Positions 16,640-56,771 of a stretch of DNA of 64,000 nt are shown here, in pieces. Location of the stretch: the sequence record ON568341.1; one strand, written 5' to 3'. The notes beneath the pieces are model-generated. The model did not search any database. It was not told the origin of the DNA and saw nothing but the letters and a program-made list of their open reading frames with translations. A program made the translations under genes and the position numbers. The first letter of the stretch is position 1. Every line of letters starts with the position of its first letter. Origin of the DNA: Escherichia phage UE-S1.

Positions 16640-16662
16640 GGGAGCCTTAGCTCCCTTTTTTT
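16640..16662 (+). terminator. Rho-independent terminator after gp46 (overlaps the stop of the convergent minus-strand gene)
   Basis: gggagc-ctta-gctccc followed by T7. Confidence 0.7.
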
Positions 16663-17138
16663 ACATCAACCATATTTAATTTACCGTCCTTAATCAGCTT
16701 TCTAGCTTGTTTTGCACGAGTAGTAGTGTTACTGCCAGGGACAACTCCGAACCCTTCCAGAATCTCGTTTTGCTGCGTTGCTGGGAGCCTTTTAAATTTA
16801 TTAGTATCCACTGTTAGTGCCGTGTGATGTATAACTTGCTCTTCTGGTGGAATATTATTGTTCTTTTCAAGGTAGTCAGCAAGGTTGCGTAGTACTTCAT
16901 GCAATGGCTTATCTGTTAAATGACTAAGACAGCGTTTAAATGAATTTGCAACCCTTCCTTCCCATCCATTCACCTCATTTTGAAGAACCTGTCTACAATG
17001 TTGATTTCCACCATGATAGTGATCCAGAACTGGTTTAGTTATTTTTATGCCTATGATGGGGTCAATGCCATTTTGTTTATTTAGCAATTCAGTTCGATAG
17101 TTTGCAGCATCCTTACTATCTTTTAATCTTTTTTTCAT
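16647..17138 (-). CDS. Putative recombination endonuclease VII-like protein (163 aa)
   Basis: Segment LDHYHGGNQHCRQVLQNEVNGWEG resembles the EndoVII LDHDH…CN…EG core; size close to T4 gp49; neighbourhood of gp55 as in T4. Canonical Cys ligands not all obvious. Confidence 0.45.
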   Translation of the reverse strand: MKKRLKDSKDAANYRTELLNKQNGIDPIIGIKITKPVLDHYHGGNQHCRQVLQNEVNGWEGRVANSFKRCLSHLTDKPLHEVLRNLADYLEKNNNIPPEEQVIHHTALTVDTNKFKRLPATQQNEILEGFGVVPGSNTTTRAKQARKLIKDGKLNMVDVKKGS

Positions 17139-17227
17139 AATTCCTCACCAAACTATTTGTCATCACAATATTTATAGATTAGTTATTTGCAATATTTTAA
17201 GTACTTAATGAATATTTTATAAAAATA

Positions 17228-17257
17228 GTGAGACAACTTTAAAATTTGTGCTATAAT
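17228..17257 (+). promoter_or_regulatory. Promoter (GTGAGACAA-N15-TGCTATAAT) driving the ORF-free locus
   Basis: Same box and spacing as the primase promoter at 56742-56771. Confidence 0.5.
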
Positions 17258-17263
17258 ATTTGT

Positions 17264-17736
17264 TGTAGTAATGACAATCCTGTTGAATGCAGAAATGCAT
17301 ATAAATGAGAACCTGATCCTATCGAAAATGTAGATGGCAGATGAGCAGTTCAACAGTGCGATGAGCAGAAGAAACCCGTCAGATGTGGGCATAGTTTGAA
17401 CCCCTCACGGCAATGCGGCTCAATAAAGAACTCCGATAAGCATACAGAGAGTTCCTAGATAGACATATAAGGATCGCACCTTACCAGATTTGCTAAGGGA
17501 GTTTATTAAGTGATTTTAATAAACAGCCTGAAGTTTGATTGTATAGACTTTCAGGTGAGTGTCAGGATGATTAAGACTGACGACCGTTGCATATGACCGT
17601 GATAGGGAGAAACCGAGCAACCCGCTTCCGTTTGCGATTGATCTTTTTACAATATAGATCCGTCCAAAATTCACGATACAATAAATGCTGAAACCATCAG
17701 CGTCAAGAAATAGAGACTTCATTGTCTCTTTTTTAT
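17264..17736 (+). ncRNA. Candidate structured non-coding RNA (about 470 nt), class unknown
   Basis: Bounded by promoter 17228-17257 and terminator 17712-17736; no plus-strand ORF of 60 aa or more; visibly higher GC than flanks; several local stem-loops (e.g. cccctgcgggggg at 17748-17760 just downstream). Confidence 0.3.
17712..17736 (+). terminator. Rho-independent terminator ending the ORF-free transcript
   Basis: agagac-ttcatt-gtctct followed by T6. Confidence 0.6.
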
Positions 17737-17951
17737 TGTCTTCATTCCCCTGCGGGGGGATGAAAATGTCCTCAACAAATCCCGTCAAGTATTAAATCTT
17801 TTAAAGTTCTTTATAATTAATTTAATGAAATGAATATGAGTTACGTAGTAACGAATATTCTTCAGCTAACGAATGAAATGAGTTAGATGAATCCAATAAT
17901 ATTAAAATTAATTCTTCCATAATTCAATTCAAATAATTCTGTAGTTTAATG

Positions 17952-17979
17952 AAAAAAAAAACCAGCAACAATGTGCTGG
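17952..17979 (-). terminator. Rho-independent terminator of the minus-strand operon ending at 17991
   Basis: Hairpin ccagca-acaatg-tgctgg preceded on plus strand by A10 (U-run on minus transcript). Confidence 0.65.
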
Positions 17980-17990
17980 TCGTGTGGGAT

Positions 17991-18200
17991 TTAGTGCTTC
18001 TCGTTTTGTTTTTTAATTTTTTTATTAAAAGACTTAACTAATAAGTCTCTATCTATTAATGGCATATTAAGAAGTGTTCCGTAATCAATATTATCCATAT
18101 ACACAGAACACTCCATTAGTGCATTTTTGATTTCTGACTTATTCAGTTCTATCTCCTTCAGTACTTCTTGTATTTCTTCAGGAGATGACTGGAGAAGCAT
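17991..18200 (-). CDS. Hypothetical protein (69 aa)
   Basis: Start overlaps upstream stop (TAATG coupling); followed by terminator. Confidence 0.4.
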   Translation of the reverse strand: MLLQSSPEEIQEVLKEIELNKSEIKNALMECSVYMDNIDYGTLLNMPLIDRDLLVKSFNKKIKKQNEKH

Positions 18201-19036
18201 TACTCGAAAAAATGACTAGGATCATATTTTAGTCCATCAATTTCCCATTGATGATTACATCCATCACACTCAACTTCCATACTATGCGATACTCCAATTT
18301 CAAGTACTTCATCCATTTTTTCACGAATTAGTTTAAGAACTCCTTTTGATTGTTGTCCAAGCCACTCATTAATGAATTCTTTTTCAACTACTTCATCACC
18401 ATCTGGAGTGATGATTTTTGCAATAACTCCACCAATCATATCAAAGTTTAGTTGTGCCATATTTTCAAATACTTCAGAAAATATTTTTACTTTTTCGTCT
18501 TGTTCAATCTCAGCAGTTTCTAGAAACTTAGTTTTCTGCTGCTCACTGAACATACGCTCAGCAAACGATGAATATTCTTTCCATGTTAGTGGTCTAAACT
18601 CTAAACGTAGTCCATTATCTAAATCAATAGATGGGATTTCTTCGAATGCTTGTGCAGTTTCAAGAAGATATGATAGATTACGTTCAAAACGACCTTCTTT
18701 TTCACATTCAGGACATACAGCGTTAATATCATATGTTTCTTCTTTAGATGCAACTTTAATAGCAATAAGAAGCATTTCAACGTCATTTACATATAACTCA
18801 TCAGCATCAATAACATTAGGAACACAGTTTTCAATGACACGTGATACTGCATCGCCGTTTAGTAACATATCTGGTGTATTGAGTGTCATTTCATCACGTG
18901 CACTACGTGCACAAACGCCACATTTGACACCTTTTGGACCTAAAACTCCGTCTTTATAAGGAATAATGCCGTTAGTAACTAATTTTGTACTGATCTCTTC
19001 AATTTTAGTGTACTTAGCAAGTGGATTCATAGCCAT
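18200..19036 (-). CDS. Hypothetical zinc-ribbon protein (278 aa; CxxC pairs at N-terminal, central and C-terminal positions)
   Basis: CGVC…CPEC…CDGC cysteine pairs; divergent from the plus-strand late operon. Confidence 0.45.
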   Translation of the reverse strand: MAMNPLAKYTKIEEISTKLVTNGIIPYKDGVLGPKGVKCGVCARSARDEMTLNTPDMLLNGDAVSRVIENCVPNVIDADELYVNDVEMLLIAIKVASKEETYDINAVCPECEKEGRFERNLSYLLETAQAFEEIPSIDLDNGLRLEFRPLTWKEYSSFAERMFSEQQKTKFLETAEIEQDEKVKIFSEVFENMAQLNFDMIGGVIAKIITPDGDEVVEKEFINEWLGQQSKGVLKLIREKMDEVLEIGVSHSMEVECDGCNHQWEIDGLKYDPSHFFE

Positions 19037-55767: not shown

Positions 55768-56745
55768 ATGGCTCATCACGGCGTGTTTATGTACCCTTAT
55801 AATCAGGAAGTATCATTGGGCAATTTTAATATGCCATTTAGTAATGAAAAACTAACTATCTATCGAGGGGCAAATAATAATTTATCTTTTACTGTTCACA
55901 ACGCTGATGGAAAATATACTTTATTGAAAGATAATGAATATCTTACATTTATGATTTTTGATGCACGAAATAATACTAAACTATTTGATGTTGTATTGGA
56001 AAAGCAAGAACCAAGTTGGTTATCAGAAAGTGGTCAAGCTCGTCAAACATTGGGAAATAAAAAGAAAGTATACTATGGATGTATTGTTCCAGCAGGAGTT
56101 ATTCAAGATACCAGTCCTGGTTCTAAATATAGATGGAGCATTACTAAAGTAACTATGGATGGTTCACTTATAGAACCAACACAATATCTATACACTGGAA
56201 TGAACTTTGAGGCATCAGCGGAGCTAATAATTTCAGACCAAGCAGCCCCAGTATTTGTTCCTAGTACTGAAATATCTACAGACAAAAATTCAGCCTGGAC
56301 ATCAATAAAGCGTTTATATAATGAACCAATTGGTAATGGTATGATAGGTGAGTATGATATACTCGCATCAACTCCACTTCCAGCACAAATGCAGTATGGG
56401 TTGGTTGATGGGCTAAGTAGCATTGCAATCTATTTTGATAAATTCATTGGAAGAATACAGTTACAAGGATGTTTGTGTAATAATGTACCTAATGATAATG
56501 AAAATTATAAATGGTTTATAATCAAATTAGATGGAAAGGATTATATTGAAAATGGGATTGATATTGATGGATTTCCAAAAGAACTTGATGGTATTCAAGC
56601 ATTTAATTTCAAAGGAAATTATATGTGGTTGCGAATCGTAGTAGCAATTCATCCTAAAAATGTTCCAGTACCATACGACTATGCTGCTGTGCGAAAAGTG
56701 TATGATCCTTTATTAACTGTACCTAAAATTTTGATTCGCAGGTGA
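55768..56745 (+). CDS. Hypothetical protein (about 326 aa)
   Basis: RBS GGAAGGA before ATG 55768 (ORF track start 55702). Confidence 0.4.
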   Translation: MAHHGVFMYPYNQEVSLGNFNMPFSNEKLTIYRGANNNLSFTVHNADGKYTLLKDNEYLTFMIFDARNNTKLFDVVLEKQEPSWLSESGQARQTLGNKKKVYYGCIVPAGVIQDTSPGSKYRWSITKVTMDGSLIEPTQYLYTGMNFEASAELIISDQAAPVFVPSTEISTDKNSAWTSIKRLYNEPIGNGMIGEYDILASTPLPAQMQYGLVDGLSSIAIYFDKFIGRIQLQGCLCNNVPNDNENYKWFIIKLDGKDYIENGIDIDGFPKELDGIQAFNFKGNYMWLRIVVAIHPKNVPVPYDYAAVRKVYDPLLTVPKILIRR

Positions 56746-56771
56746 GACAAAATTAGAAGGTGTGCTATAAT
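56742..56771 (+). promoter_or_regulatory. Promoter (GTGAGACAA-N15-TGTGCTATAAT) for primase/helicase operon
   Basis: Identical box and spacing to 17228-17257. Confidence 0.55.

Follow-up and report, generated by a model that had tools for sequence, protein, structure and literature searches.

In Escherichia phage UE-S1 (record ON568341.1), positions 17228 to about 17790 of the 64,000-nucleotide stretch that we analyzed, hereafter the window, are almost certainly the autonomous gene of an uncatalogued family of structured non-coding RNAs. The family has not been catalogued before and is found in no database. The window DNA is that of a 121Q/PBECO4-like jumbo phage (~94% identity), and the interval itself is conserved, with about 70-75% identity between distant genera.

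The gene occupies an 852-bp ORF-free gap (17139-17990) between a 163-aa ORF (16647-17138, minus strand) and a 69-aa ORF (17991-18200, minus strand), the latter followed by a T4_baseplate gene (18200-19036, minus strand). The 163-aa ORF had no match in Pfam; its orthologue is annotated as endonuclease VII in 121Q and GAP32. The initial annotation had described about 850 bp without a credible ORF beside an EndoVII-like gene, and indeed the mechanically called ORFs within the gap are at most 90 aa long. A conserved protein-coding frame would have spoken against an RNA gene. We looked for a reading frame or peptide gene across the aligned copies, using phase variability and indels, and found none: column variability by codon phase was 0.216/0.216/0.196, that is, without three-base periodicity, and indel lengths gave 373/138/101 for remainders 1/2/0 on division by three, the majority not being multiples of three. 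The 91-codon stop-free stretch on the minus strand of the window comprises only 46 codons in 121Q. Several GenBank records place three or four spurious hypothetical proteins over the RNA gene. The interval had also been called GC-richer than its AT-rich flanks, which measurement bears out: GC is 0.40 for 17264-17736 and 0.19 for each flank (17140-17227 and 17796-17858), with a window mean of 0.34. The elements of the locus are as follows (paired segments are separated by a colon).

17228-17257, plus strand: promoter with -35-like GTGAGACAA, 12-nt spacer and extended -10 TGCTATAAT; inferred start near 17264
17264-17735, plus strand: RNA core, ~472 nt, beginning at the inferred start and ending with the first U-run; 53-95% identity in 31 copies
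17280-17356, plus strand: PK-A, 17280-17287 (CUGUUGAA) with the P3 loop 17349-17356 (UUCAACAG); encloses P1 and P2
17287-91:17296-300, plus strand: P1, with GAAA loop, inside PK-A
17313-15:17338-40, 17318-19:17336-37 and 17321-23:17333-35, plus strand: P2, with conserved loop GAAAAUGUA; compensatory change in 7/8 pairs
17345-47:17357-59, plus strand: P3; pair 17346:17358 is UA in 53, AU in 19 and CG in 14 of 86 sequences
17362-66:17418-22, plus strand: P4; paired in 85/85 to 86/86
17376-79:17407-10, plus strand: P5, with variable extension 17380-17406; part of 17345-17422
17413-17466, plus strand: T1, a tertiary 3-bp helix of 17413-15 (AUG) with 17464-66 (CAU); joins the P4 internal loop and the P6/P7 junction
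17428-33:17449-54, plus strand: P6, in the central domain (17428-17524); 6/6 pairs covary, 97.8% of cells paired
17468-72:17479-83, plus strand: P7; visible in every copy, misaligned by MAFFT at variable loops
17494-17501, plus strand: invariant UAAGGGA(G) of the central domain
17501-09:17516-24, plus strand: P8; like P7, visible in every copy and misaligned by MAFFT at variable loops
17527-34:17547-55, plus strand: P9, in the 3' domain (17527-17701)
17538-44 with 17676-82, plus strand: PK1; 7/7 pairs covary, 96-100% paired in 86 sequences
17561-65:17577-81, plus strand: P10, in the 3' domain
17586-90 with 17617-21, plus strand: PK2; five positions, each paired in 86/86
17598-602:17671-75, plus strand: P11; 98-100% paired (86 sequences)
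17605-09:17625-29, plus strand: P12; 100% paired (86 sequences)
17632-17667, plus strand: P13, variable, in the 3' domain
about 17687-91:17697-701, plus strand: P14, register uncertain
17712-17735, plus strand: P15, intrinsic-terminator-like hairpin (17712-17:17724-29) with U6; -7.9 kcal/mol, compensatory change in 5/6 pairs
17741-17790, plus strand: P16 hairpin (17741-50:17755-64) with CCCC/GGGGGG core, and tail CCUCAACAAAUCCCGUCAAG; -16.9 kcal/mol, strongest conservation in the whole family
17796-17891, plus strand: AT-rich spacer (17796-17858, GC 0.19), then hairpin H1 (17861-17891) with loop GAAUGAAAUGA
17960-17981, no strand assigned: terminator hairpin of the convergent minus-strand operon, where read-through RNA could next stop; lacks a plus-strand U-run

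A near-consensus extended -10 sigma-70 promoter, predicted from the sequence, keeps its position among the homologues. All 31 aligned copies carry TGGAACA, TGAGACA or TTGAACA at a constant distance from a TGnTATAAT-type -10, and the extended form TGnTAnAAT is present in 30 of them; the remaining copy (L054) has TCCTATAAT, which lacks the TG. The initial annotation had placed the promoter at 17228-17257 and matched it to a second site. Boxes, coordinates and equal spacing stand, as the same GTGAGACAA/TGCTATAAT boxes recur at 56742-56771, and the spacer given as 15 nt is actually 12 nt. When we searched the window for a second RNA copy, only this promoter recurred, at 56742. Host sigma-70 RNA polymerase would initiate near 17264 and, because the promoter is near consensus, transcription would be early and would require no phage factor.

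Covariation shows a fold of three domains, in which at least 16 helices are locked in place by the pseudoknots PK-A, PK1 and PK2 and by one 3-bp tertiary helix. RNAalifold returned 64 pairs, 38 of them with compensatory change. When 94 pairs in 18 helices were tested across 31 copies, 91.3% of cells were paired compared to 38-44% in slid controls, compensatory change was seen in 57 of the pairs (12-26 in slid controls), and the covariation score was 0.371, a value reached by 0 of 500 shuffles and set against at most 0.102 in the controls. A structured RNA with local inverted repeats had been proposed from the single sequence and was to be abandoned if homologues lacked covariation; the helices and pseudoknots supported here uphold it. 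G-U/A-U alternations and U-G wobbles identify the plus strand as the RNA strand. Many unpaired nucleotides are invariant across copies. The invariant UAAGGGAG resembles a Shine-Dalgarno sequence, a likeness on which we only speculate.

The tertiary contacts change their sequence while keeping their complementarity. PK-A is formed by ten different Watson-Crick complementary sequence pairs of 5-8 bp in the 31 copies; in 26 of these, at most 4.3% of loop shuffles equal the observed run, and the remainder have Watson-Crick runs of only 4-5 bp. Among 86 sequences, pair 17415:17464 of T1 is GC in 58 and AU in 25, pair 17414:17465 is UA in 79 and CG in 4, and the PK2 pair 17590:17617 occurs as CG (67), UA (15), AU (3) and GC (1). 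In three copies (L055, L100 and L098) a UUCG tetraloop replaces the entire P5 extension, a natural minimization. Pairing deduced from covariation may be intramolecular or intermolecular, and covariation does not separate the two.

Several further pairings were considered and set aside. Several long-range helices from a helix scan, among them 17410-14:17586-90 and pairings of the G-run with 17625-31 or 17375-79, were dropped on account of invariant or look-alike sequences, and PK2 accounts better for the covariation. A loop-loop contact between P3 and P14 (17350:17693) was rejected because the adjacent positions are unpaired, and pairing of 17487-92 with CAAAUC of the tail is seen in the window alone and does not covary. 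Both sides of a potential pairing between UGA (17342-44) and UCA of the tail are invariant, so that it would give no covariation signal.

The 3' end is less simple than a single stop. A rho-independent terminator had been reported at 17712-17736, and P15 has the expected form of a GC-containing hairpin directly before a U-run, with its stem at 17712-17717/17724-17729, a U6 ending at 17735 and a stability of -7.9 kcal/mol. The accompanying description of a self-contained unit ending at 17736 has to be revised: the most conserved block runs on to ~17790, conservation continues more loosely to ~17891, with another conserved hairpin at 17861-17891. The C-run of P16 varies solely from C to U, giving U-G wobbles, and its G-run is nearly invariant; the outer stem pairs poorly in the 86-copy alignment. 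H1 and a second hairpin, H2, recur 3' of most copies, H2 being degenerate in the window. Some paralogues have a -35-like TTGACA box, or a complete TGGAAC-N18-TATAAT promoter, that overlaps H2. The sequence TAACGAAT is present twice downstream of the RNA, with ACGAA cores at 17851 and 17869, 18 nt apart. P15 is missing in 121Q copy C and in Serratia BF L105-type copies, which retain P16 and the tail. Because two paralogue types thus lack P15 and conserved RNA-type structure lies 3' of it, termination at P15 is probably partial. Most transcripts would stop at P15 and its U6, giving ~472 nt, and some would read through P16 and the tail, giving ~527 nt or longer. Efficient termination at P15 would leave the conservation of P16, tail, H1 and H2 unexplained by a trans-acting RNA of 472 nt.

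The family comprises 133 matches, with 86 unique full-length copies in 37 clusters at 88% identity. Matches occur in 72 phage records, 36 of them at 60-80% identity and from several genera, and RaK2-like phage genomes carry three to four or more diverged copies each. The copies are intergenic, and the genes that border them are unrelated; neighbors vary among paralogous loci, the downstream genes are non-homologous and no protein gene is linked to the RNA. Single full-length copies with the same promoter are also found in integrase-RNA-cI islands of E. coli, Silvania and related chromosomes; E. coli LR-29-1 and an Enterobacter strain are among the carriers. These are small, integrating elements of the integrase-cI type that carry defence cargo, and in a rough distance tree their RNA falls among the phage A-type copies (the type found in the window) at two separate places. 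A plasmid collection searched for the family gave no match. Looser DNA patterns in IMG/VR produced many chance matches, for example to tRNA genes in a 327-kb phage, which were discarded after nhmmer and inspection. A 286-aa island protein considered as a partner or Rep was also set aside, being hypothetical and membrane-like, with no domain match and no homologue at the phage loci.

No known class accounts for the RNA. The Rfam 15 scan, whose scope includes group I/II introns, RNase P, tmRNA, 6S, SRP, ROOL, GOLLD, HEARO, OLE, raiA and self-cleaving ribozymes, had been suggested as a check and gave no match for the whole window at the gathering score. At E up to 10, positions 17100-18050 returned only unrelated matches far below the gathering score, mostly to flanking hairpins; a set of five diverse copies, scanned up to E 0.5, returned only ffs (SRP RNA) and one sub-threshold Thr-leader outside the RNA. 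The search for a group I core, indecisive in the initial annotation, is thereby settled, as neither group I nor group II models match. Across the window ARAGORN identified no tRNA or tmRNA, and in ten copy-bearing loci nothing that it identified overlaps the RNA, in line with the failure to see a tRNA cloverleaf by eye. The published literature that we searched holds no description of this RNA. With more than 400 nt, covarying helices, pseudoknots, invariant nucleotides and no coding capacity it answers to the description of a large ornate non-coding RNA, a likeness in kind only; homology to OLE, GOLLD, ROOL and raiA was looked for and not found.

How might such an RNA work? We see roughly an even chance that, as against the rivals weighed below, the RNA is trans-acting and, folded in three dimensions, binds a factor or assembles with itself. 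We propose this mechanism by analogy to large structured RNAs of other kinds. The RNA would bind a factor shared by Enterobacterales or belonging to the phage, or associate with itself, and would be neither a leader nor an antisense RNA nor a template. Its three to four or more diverged copies per phage genome would increase dosage, and paralogue-specific pseudoknot sequences would prevent mispairing between co-expressed copies. The islands would have acquired the gene from phages at least twice, to exploit or interfere with the same process.

The main rival, an alternative already named in the initial annotation and doubtful in our judgement yet to be taken seriously, is a replication-origin RNA: like ColE1 RNA II or the oriE and oriF transcripts of T4, it would be a primer precursor or R-loop organizer. 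Its fold would guide a lasting hybrid into place over 17755-17858, where G-run, tail and AT-rich region lie. The 350-kb genome would have several origins, one at each copy, and islands would carry a copy so as to be replicated, and packaged by headful, in a jumbo-phage infection or via host enzymes. T4 origins consist of a promoter and an AT-rich unwinding element, oriE having an early promoter and iterons, and minimal T4 origins are roughly 100 bp (PMC3016281). The window shows a promoter at 17228-17257 followed by an A+T-rich element at 17796-17858 (GC 0.19), although, unlike in the minimal T4 origins, ~530 nt of constrained RNA separate them. Several dispersed copies per genome each have an early-type promoter, and beyond a nearly invariant G6 run just past the U-run come the 63 bp with a GC of 0.19 and the short ACGAA repeats. 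ACGAA occurs in 40 of 46 downstream regions, although within hairpin loops and without regular spacing, and (A/G)CGAA(G/T) four times directly 3' of the E. coli island copy. Copy A, that of the window, sits at a strand switch, no replication or packaging gene was recognized in the examined parts of the islands, and the nesting of island RNA at two places among A-type copies agrees with an origin as well. Dispersed copies, the downstream AT-rich stretch with its repeats and the presence in islands fit an origin at least as well as a trans-acting RNA.

The degree of constraint speaks against such an origin. T4 R-loops need no particular RNA sequence, whereas here ~470 nt are constrained, with three pseudoknots and many invariant loops, far exceeding the constraint of any known primer RNA. 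Moreover, a terminator normally separates the RNA core from the supposed hybrid site, 121Q copies B and C lie away from strand switches, and the repeats are short and irregularly spaced, with no known initiator protein; no initiator gene, as expected for an iteron-type origin, was found.

A ribozyme, self-cleaving, self-processing or acting in trans as an RNA-processing enzyme, appears improbable. Ribozymes typically have a core of several pseudoknots in which unpaired nucleotides are invariant, as here, and no protein gene is linked, but no Rfam ribozyme model matches and no substrate is evident. A hammerhead-like GAUGAG...GAAA was rejected, as by inspection these motifs misfit the core positions.

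We consider it very improbable that the RNA is a cis-acting leader or attenuator whose fold senses a signal and sets P15 read-through into downstream genes. At B- and C-type loci a same-strand gene begins 15-100 nt past the conserved unit, and two paralogue types lack P15, so that the RNA there must be co-transcribed with the downstream gene. At the A locus of the window and its orthologues, however, nothing lies downstream on the plus strand and the next genes converge; paralogous loci have unrelated genes downstream, and the highly variable P15 stem has no conserved anti-terminator partner.

A remnant of a mobile intron or retroelement (group I/II intron or retron-type RNA) is largely refuted: the copies are dispersed and multiple, an endonuclease VII or HNH gene lies near two of them, and B-type copies sit just 3' of the upstream gene's own terminator, but models of introns, retrons and other RNAs fail to match, the genes on either side are complete, neither an interrupted gene nor a reverse transcriptase nor an intron-encoded protein is present, the promoter belongs to the conserved unit, and the copies hold syntenic positions across genera and are therefore old and not actively moving.

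Beyond the choice between a trans-acting RNA and these rivals, we tentatively raise the possibility of a new mechanism, centred on RNA and common to giant phages and the small islands that parasitize or resist them, in which this RNA does the work. It might be a folded origin RNA that by itself marks and primes several origins of the 350-kb genome and is copied by minimal satellites for their replication and packaging, or it might represent a new class of ribozyme or of self-assembling RNA machine. The occurrence in virulent jumbo phages and in defence-cargo integrase-cI islands suggests an RNA-mediated phage-island interaction, and if the origin reading is true, the RNA would offer the first handle on how replication starts in RaK2-like genomes. 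To our knowledge, large RNAs with comparable conserved tertiary structure are rare, and nearly all known ones (rRNA, RNase P, group I/II introns, tmRNA, OLE, GOLLD, ROOL) revealed new biochemistry. As the hosts (E. coli and relatives) are well studied and the phages 121Q, PBECO4, GAP32, RaK2 and CBB are culturable, the RNA is directly testable, and ~86 distinct sequences are already available for structure work.

Among known systems, tmRNA and RNase P RNA are comparable in length, in pseudoknot number and in having conserved single-stranded cores. Unlike them, the present RNA shows by inspection no tRNA-like acceptor or T-arm, tag frame or P4-type core, and neither ARAGORN nor Rfam matches it. 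ColE1 RNA II and the T4 oriE, oriF and oriG transcripts resemble it as promoter-driven transcripts of several hundred nt, and multiple origins per genome would parallel the multiple copies. ColE1 RNA II is not known to have pseudoknots, and its conservation is far weaker. The present transcript leads into a G-run and an AT-rich region, and oriE also has an early promoter and short repeats; in contrast, T4 R-loops have no RNA sequence requirement (PMC3016281). Here a terminator precedes the putative hybrid site.

PA5oct, a jumbo phage related to the RaK2/121Q group, encodes ncRNA001-004, ORF-free transcribed regions of 236-619 nt, two of which each account for 1-5% of phage reads; these abundant lncRNAs are verified by RNA-seq, no known promoters were found for them and no structure is reported (PMC7318152). 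The resemblance is one of analogy only, and homology was rejected for ncRNA001 and ncRNA002, in whose region nhmmer found no similarity to the present family.

GOLLD and ROOL are large ornate RNAs of Firmicutes phages and prophages. They share with the present family a size class of about 500-800 nt, phages or mobile elements as carriers, many conserved helices and pseudoknots, a non-coding nature and the lack of a fixed protein-gene neighbor. Sequence and structure are not homologous, with no cmscan match even at E up to 10, and the present family differs in residing in Enterobacterales, in the three to four or more diverged copies that a genome carries, all under separate sigma-70 promoters, and in having no nearby tRNA gene, save one ~9 kb away in a GAP32 locus. 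Cryo-EM shows that GOLLD and ROOL form RNA-only multimeric cages (10.1101/2024.12.08.627333).

The pRNA of phi29 is unlike the present RNA in being ~170 nt long, single-copy and tied to a terminal-protein packaging motor, and the two are not homologous. We know of no such motor in T4-like phages. Nevertheless, pRNA is a structured phage RNA whose loop-loop 'pseudoknot', supported by covariation, turned out to join separate molecules into a ring. By analogy, PK1 or PK-A could likewise be intermolecular.

The gap at 17139-17990 (852 bp) is flanked by minus-strand genes on both sides, and the ORFs in it are purely mechanical and no longer than 90 aa, in agreement with the initial annotation, which had described an ORF-free region between an EndoVII-like gene and a minus-strand operon. 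The elements of the locus are as follows.

16647-17138, minus strand: left neighbour, a 163-aa ORF without a Pfam match, whose orthologues in phages 121Q and GAP32 are annotated as endonuclease VII
17228-17257, plus strand: RNA promoter, GTGAGACAA, 12 nt, TGCTATAAT
17712-17717/17724-17729, plus strand: P15, a terminator-like hairpin with U6 directly 3'
17741-64, plus strand: P16, a hairpin of -16.9 kcal/mol
to ~17790, plus strand: tail, CCUCAACAAAUCCCGUCAAG, which together with P16 forms the family's most conserved block
17796-17858: AT-rich stretch, GC 0.19
17991-18200, minus strand: right neighbour, a 69-aa ORF
18200-19036, minus strand: next gene, T4_baseplate family

The GC-richer interior and the rho-independent terminator that had been proposed were both recovered, with a GC content of 0.40 within the interval, 0.19 in each flank and 0.34 in the window, and with hairpin 17712-17729 followed by U6. 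The promoter lies where it had been placed and its boxes and spacing recur identically at a second site (GTGAGACAA-N12-TGCTATAAT, 56742-56771), but the spacer had been miscounted as 15 nt and is 12 nt. A further hairpin at 17960-17981 (ACCAGCA..TGCTGGT), with an A-run and a T-run on its sides, terminates the convergent minus-strand operon and was found again downstream of A-type copies, the paralogue type of the window, in many phages.

The window region is ~94% identical to Asteriusvirus phages (121Q, PBECO4, phAPEC6 and others). Using BLAST, the interval ~17300-17800 matched distant RaK2-like jumbo phages at ~70-75% identity (Munch/7t3, EJP2, Erwinia phages, Serratia BF, Yersinia fHe-Yen9-03/04, GAP32, CBB and XbC2), with only partial matches in RaK2 and K64-1, and four to six places matched per genome. 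As the best match was syntenic (endonuclease VII/baseplate hub) in some genomes and lay at a different locus in others, genomes carry paralogues. In IMG/VR, pattern scans and subsequent nhmmer searches yielded three copies in 121Q (192.7, 247.4 and 326.5 kb, all on the plus strand), four in GAP32 (loci L020, L151, L152/L110 and L153), four in Serratia BF (L011, L012, L105 and L147) and at least three in CBB (L034, L112 and L156). Copies within one genome share only ~60-73% identity. A metagenome scan added 66 loci, so that the family now has 133 hits; it comprises 86 unique full-length RNAs, and clustering at 88% identity gives 37 groups. Clustering of neighbouring genes places the copies in phages at four or more syntenic loci. 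In Salmonella phage Munch (L002 513-1469), the endonuclease VII and RNA genes are separated by an inserted 318-aa ORF with DUF723 and treble-clef zinc-finger matches; other phages do not have it, and it has the look of a free-standing, mobile insertion of the endonuclease type.

For 31 distinct copies, RNAalifold predicted 64 pairs, of which 38 show compensatory changes, and further structural elements were added by inspection, helix scan and mutual information. The resulting model, whose helices are all canonical in the window sequence, comprises:

5' domain: helices P1 to P5
17280-87 (5' strand) with P3 loop 17349-56: pseudoknot PK-A
central domain: helices P6 to P8, surrounding an invariant UAAGGGA(G)
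17413-15 with 17464-66: T1, a 3-bp tertiary contact
3' domain: helices P9 to P14
P9 loop 17538-44 with 17676-82, immediately 3' of P11: pseudoknot PK1
17586-90 with P12 loop 17617-21: pseudoknot PK2

We counted 94 pairs in 18 helices over the 31-sequence alignment, sliding the 3' partner by 1-3 columns as control. Paired cells amounted to 91.3% (38-44% in slid controls), 57 pairs were changed on both sides (12-26 when slid), and the covariation score was 0.371 (at most 0.102 when slid; attained by none of 500 shuffles). Covariation among homologues thus bears out the structured non-coding RNA first proposed here. The low-scoring helices (P7, P8 and outer P9) adjoin variable-length loops misaligned by MAFFT, and their hairpins are discernible in every single sequence. 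PK-A is formed by ten distinct Watson-Crick complementary sequence pairs among the 31 copies (for example CUGUUGAA/UUCAACAG, CUGAUUGA/UCAAUCAG, CUGAAAGG/CCUUUCAG, ACAACGG/CCGUUGU and AUGUUGG/CCAACAU); at most 4.3% of loop shuffles attained the observed run in 26 copies, the other five having Watson-Crick runs of only 4-5 bp. Among the 86 unique sequences, all seven PK1 pairs covary and are 96-100% paired, each of the five PK2 positions is paired in 86/86 (four pair types at 17590:17617), and the T1 pair 17415:17464 is G-C in 58 and A-U in 25. Three copies carry a UUCG tetraloop in place of the whole P5 extension, a natural minimisation.

A ~35-nt hairpin module (GCGAU..UUUUUACAAUAUAGAUCCGUCCAAAAUU) lies within P13 of the window (17636-17669; compared with L008 1409-1450, L013, L014 and L207) and within P8 in GAP32 and in 121Q copies B and C. 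The E. coli island copy carries it in both helices and the 121Q orthologue of the window copy in neither. The module seems to shift from helix to helix and from copy to copy, for which recombination among paralogues may be responsible.

The unit had been taken to close at the U-run. This did not hold, as conservation runs on through P16 and the tail. P15 is wholly absent from 121Q copy C and from the BF L105 type, two types of paralogue that keep P16 and the tail. Throughout the 86 sequences the P16 G-run is nearly invariant, its C-run is substituted solely to U and its outer stem pairs poorly, so the G-run is conserved beyond pairing. These C-to-U changes and the G-U/A-U alternations fit no strand other than plus, from which the RNA is therefore read. 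After the AT-rich stretch most copies have a hairpin with a ACGAAGUGAA-type loop (H1; 17861-17891 in the window) and a second covarying hairpin (H2), degenerate in the window, which overlaps a TTGACA box or, for certain paralogues, a complete promoter that matches the RNA's own in type. We infer partial termination at P15 and the existence of longer RNA forms; the downstream part may function as DNA. In 121Q copy C (L013 2840-2885, ~192.8 kb), a terminator-like hairpin with U7 (GGUGAC..GUCACCUUUUUUU) directly follows the -10 box, at the transcript start and ahead of the PK-A strand.

Variability is flat across codon phases (0.216, 0.216 and 0.196), most indels are not multiples of three, and not even the window and 121Q share a conserved open frame, confirming the lack of a credible ORF. 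Lacking a coding signal, the CDSs annotated across the RNA gene are very probably spurious; three or four 'hypothetical proteins' lie there in GenBank PP886230, PQ390715, PQ330092, OR699282, OR699188 and others, and two 23-aa CDSs over the orthologous region in the Yersinia phage fHe-Yen9-04 record. Shine-Dalgarno-like motifs occur at 17494-17501 (invariant UAAGGGAG), 17602-17611 (AUAGGGAGAA) and 17755-17768 (GGGGGGAUGAAAAUG), and AUG codons are present; the short frame after GGGGGGAUGAAAAUG is not conserved, copies differing by a 1-nt indel. That these motifs touch the 16S rRNA 3' end is pure speculation.

The Rfam 15 scan suggested at the outset matched no known family: nothing reached gathering score in the whole window, and nothing meaningful appeared at E up to 10 for the region or up to 0.5 for five diverse copies. 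ARAGORN calls overlap none of the copies, so tRNA and tmRNA were rejected and the reported absence of a cloverleaf is upheld.

Beyond phages, a BLAST search of 5,426 complete E. coli genomes gave copies in two, and a strict pattern applied to a set of genomes from 100,044 species retrieved three members, from Silvania hatchlandensis, from Enterobacteriaceae RIT714 and from a metagenome-assembled genome. In E. coli LR-29-1 the copy is full-length (427 bits), has the promoter, P15, P16 and tail seen in phage, and lies on a ~10.7-kb island between ffs (SRP RNA gene) and ybaA (L207 4958-15302, NZ_AP027515.1). This island contains an IS3-split tyrosine integrase, the RNA, hypothetical genes, the PDC-M45 candidate defence genes (DuOB, DUF488 and DUF4326) and a small serine recombinase; ~700 nt more non-coding sequence lies 3' of the RNA. 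By neighbouring-gene clustering, most of nine island loci share one order: an integrase (large serine or tyrosine recombinase), the RNA on the same strand, a convergent cI/LexA-type repressor (missing from LR-29-1), a Cro-like repressor, a 286-aa hypothetical, membrane-like protein frequent in Enterobacter and Klebsiella chromosomes, and an LprI-like protein. We recognised no replication or packaging genes in the island parts examined. Cargo includes DarT and ADP-ribosylglycohydrolase, whose genes follow each other in this order in Silvania hatchlandensis (L204 1368-3728). An ADP-ribosylglycohydrolase gene also lies just 3' of the B-type copy of phage XbC2 (L009 2025-2888), which may be coincidence. 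Island RNAs fall at two separate places within phage A-type clades of a rough distance tree, which suggests that phages and islands have exchanged the RNA two or more times.

These data show that a compactly folded RNA has a gene of its own, which is autonomous, conserved and present in multiple copies. Host RNA polymerase would transcribe it early, as the promoter is near-consensus sigma-70 and of a type probably shared with another phage gene. The RNA would act in trans, since no gene is consistently linked, genes downstream of paralogous loci are unrelated and nothing lies downstream on the plus strand of the A locus; a cis-acting leader is accordingly very improbable. Invariant unpaired nucleotides, dense within a pseudoknotted scaffold, point to a factor-binding, catalytic or self-assembling RNA. 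The host clade, Enterobacterales, is the sole constant over all contexts, so the simplest candidates for a partner would be a component of the host, a core component of the phage, or the RNA itself. Within a genome, PK-A and PK1 sequences differ between paralogues (PK1 of the three 121Q copies: AUUGUAU, AUCGAAU and GUCAUAU), which would block cross-pairing, be the pairings intra- or intermolecular. We give a trans-acting binder or assembly an even chance.

The main rival, an RNA serving a replication origin, is unlikely yet deserves weight. Several dispersed copies, an early-type promoter, a G-run with an AT-rich stretch and short repeats 3' of it, and islands devoid of a recognised replication gene would all suit it, as would T4, whose origins combine a promoter with an unwinding element, oriE having an early promoter and iterons (PMC3016281). 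However, T4 R-loops require no specific sequence (PMC3016281), no known primer RNA is under such constraint, the terminator stands ahead of the supposed hybrid site, and 121Q copies B and C lie away from strand switches. A ribozyme, which the dense invariant nucleotides would also fit, is doubtful. An intron was rejected, the flanking genes being complete and the unit having its own promoter, and we consider an intron or retroelement next to negligible.

As for the RNA itself, we found no description of it in literature accessible without subscription, nor a counterpart there for its multi-copy state, own promoters and occurrence in virulent jumbo phages as well as integrative islands. The related phage PA5oct has lncRNAs verified by RNA-seq (PMC7318152), which show no sequence similarity to it in the region examined. 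We rate the RNA as a new class, with the caveat that 'large structured RNA of unknown function' is already a descriptive category. While homologous neither to GOLLD, ROOL and OLE nor to any other Rfam family, it is similar in kind to these three: large ornate RNAs, frequently on mobile elements.
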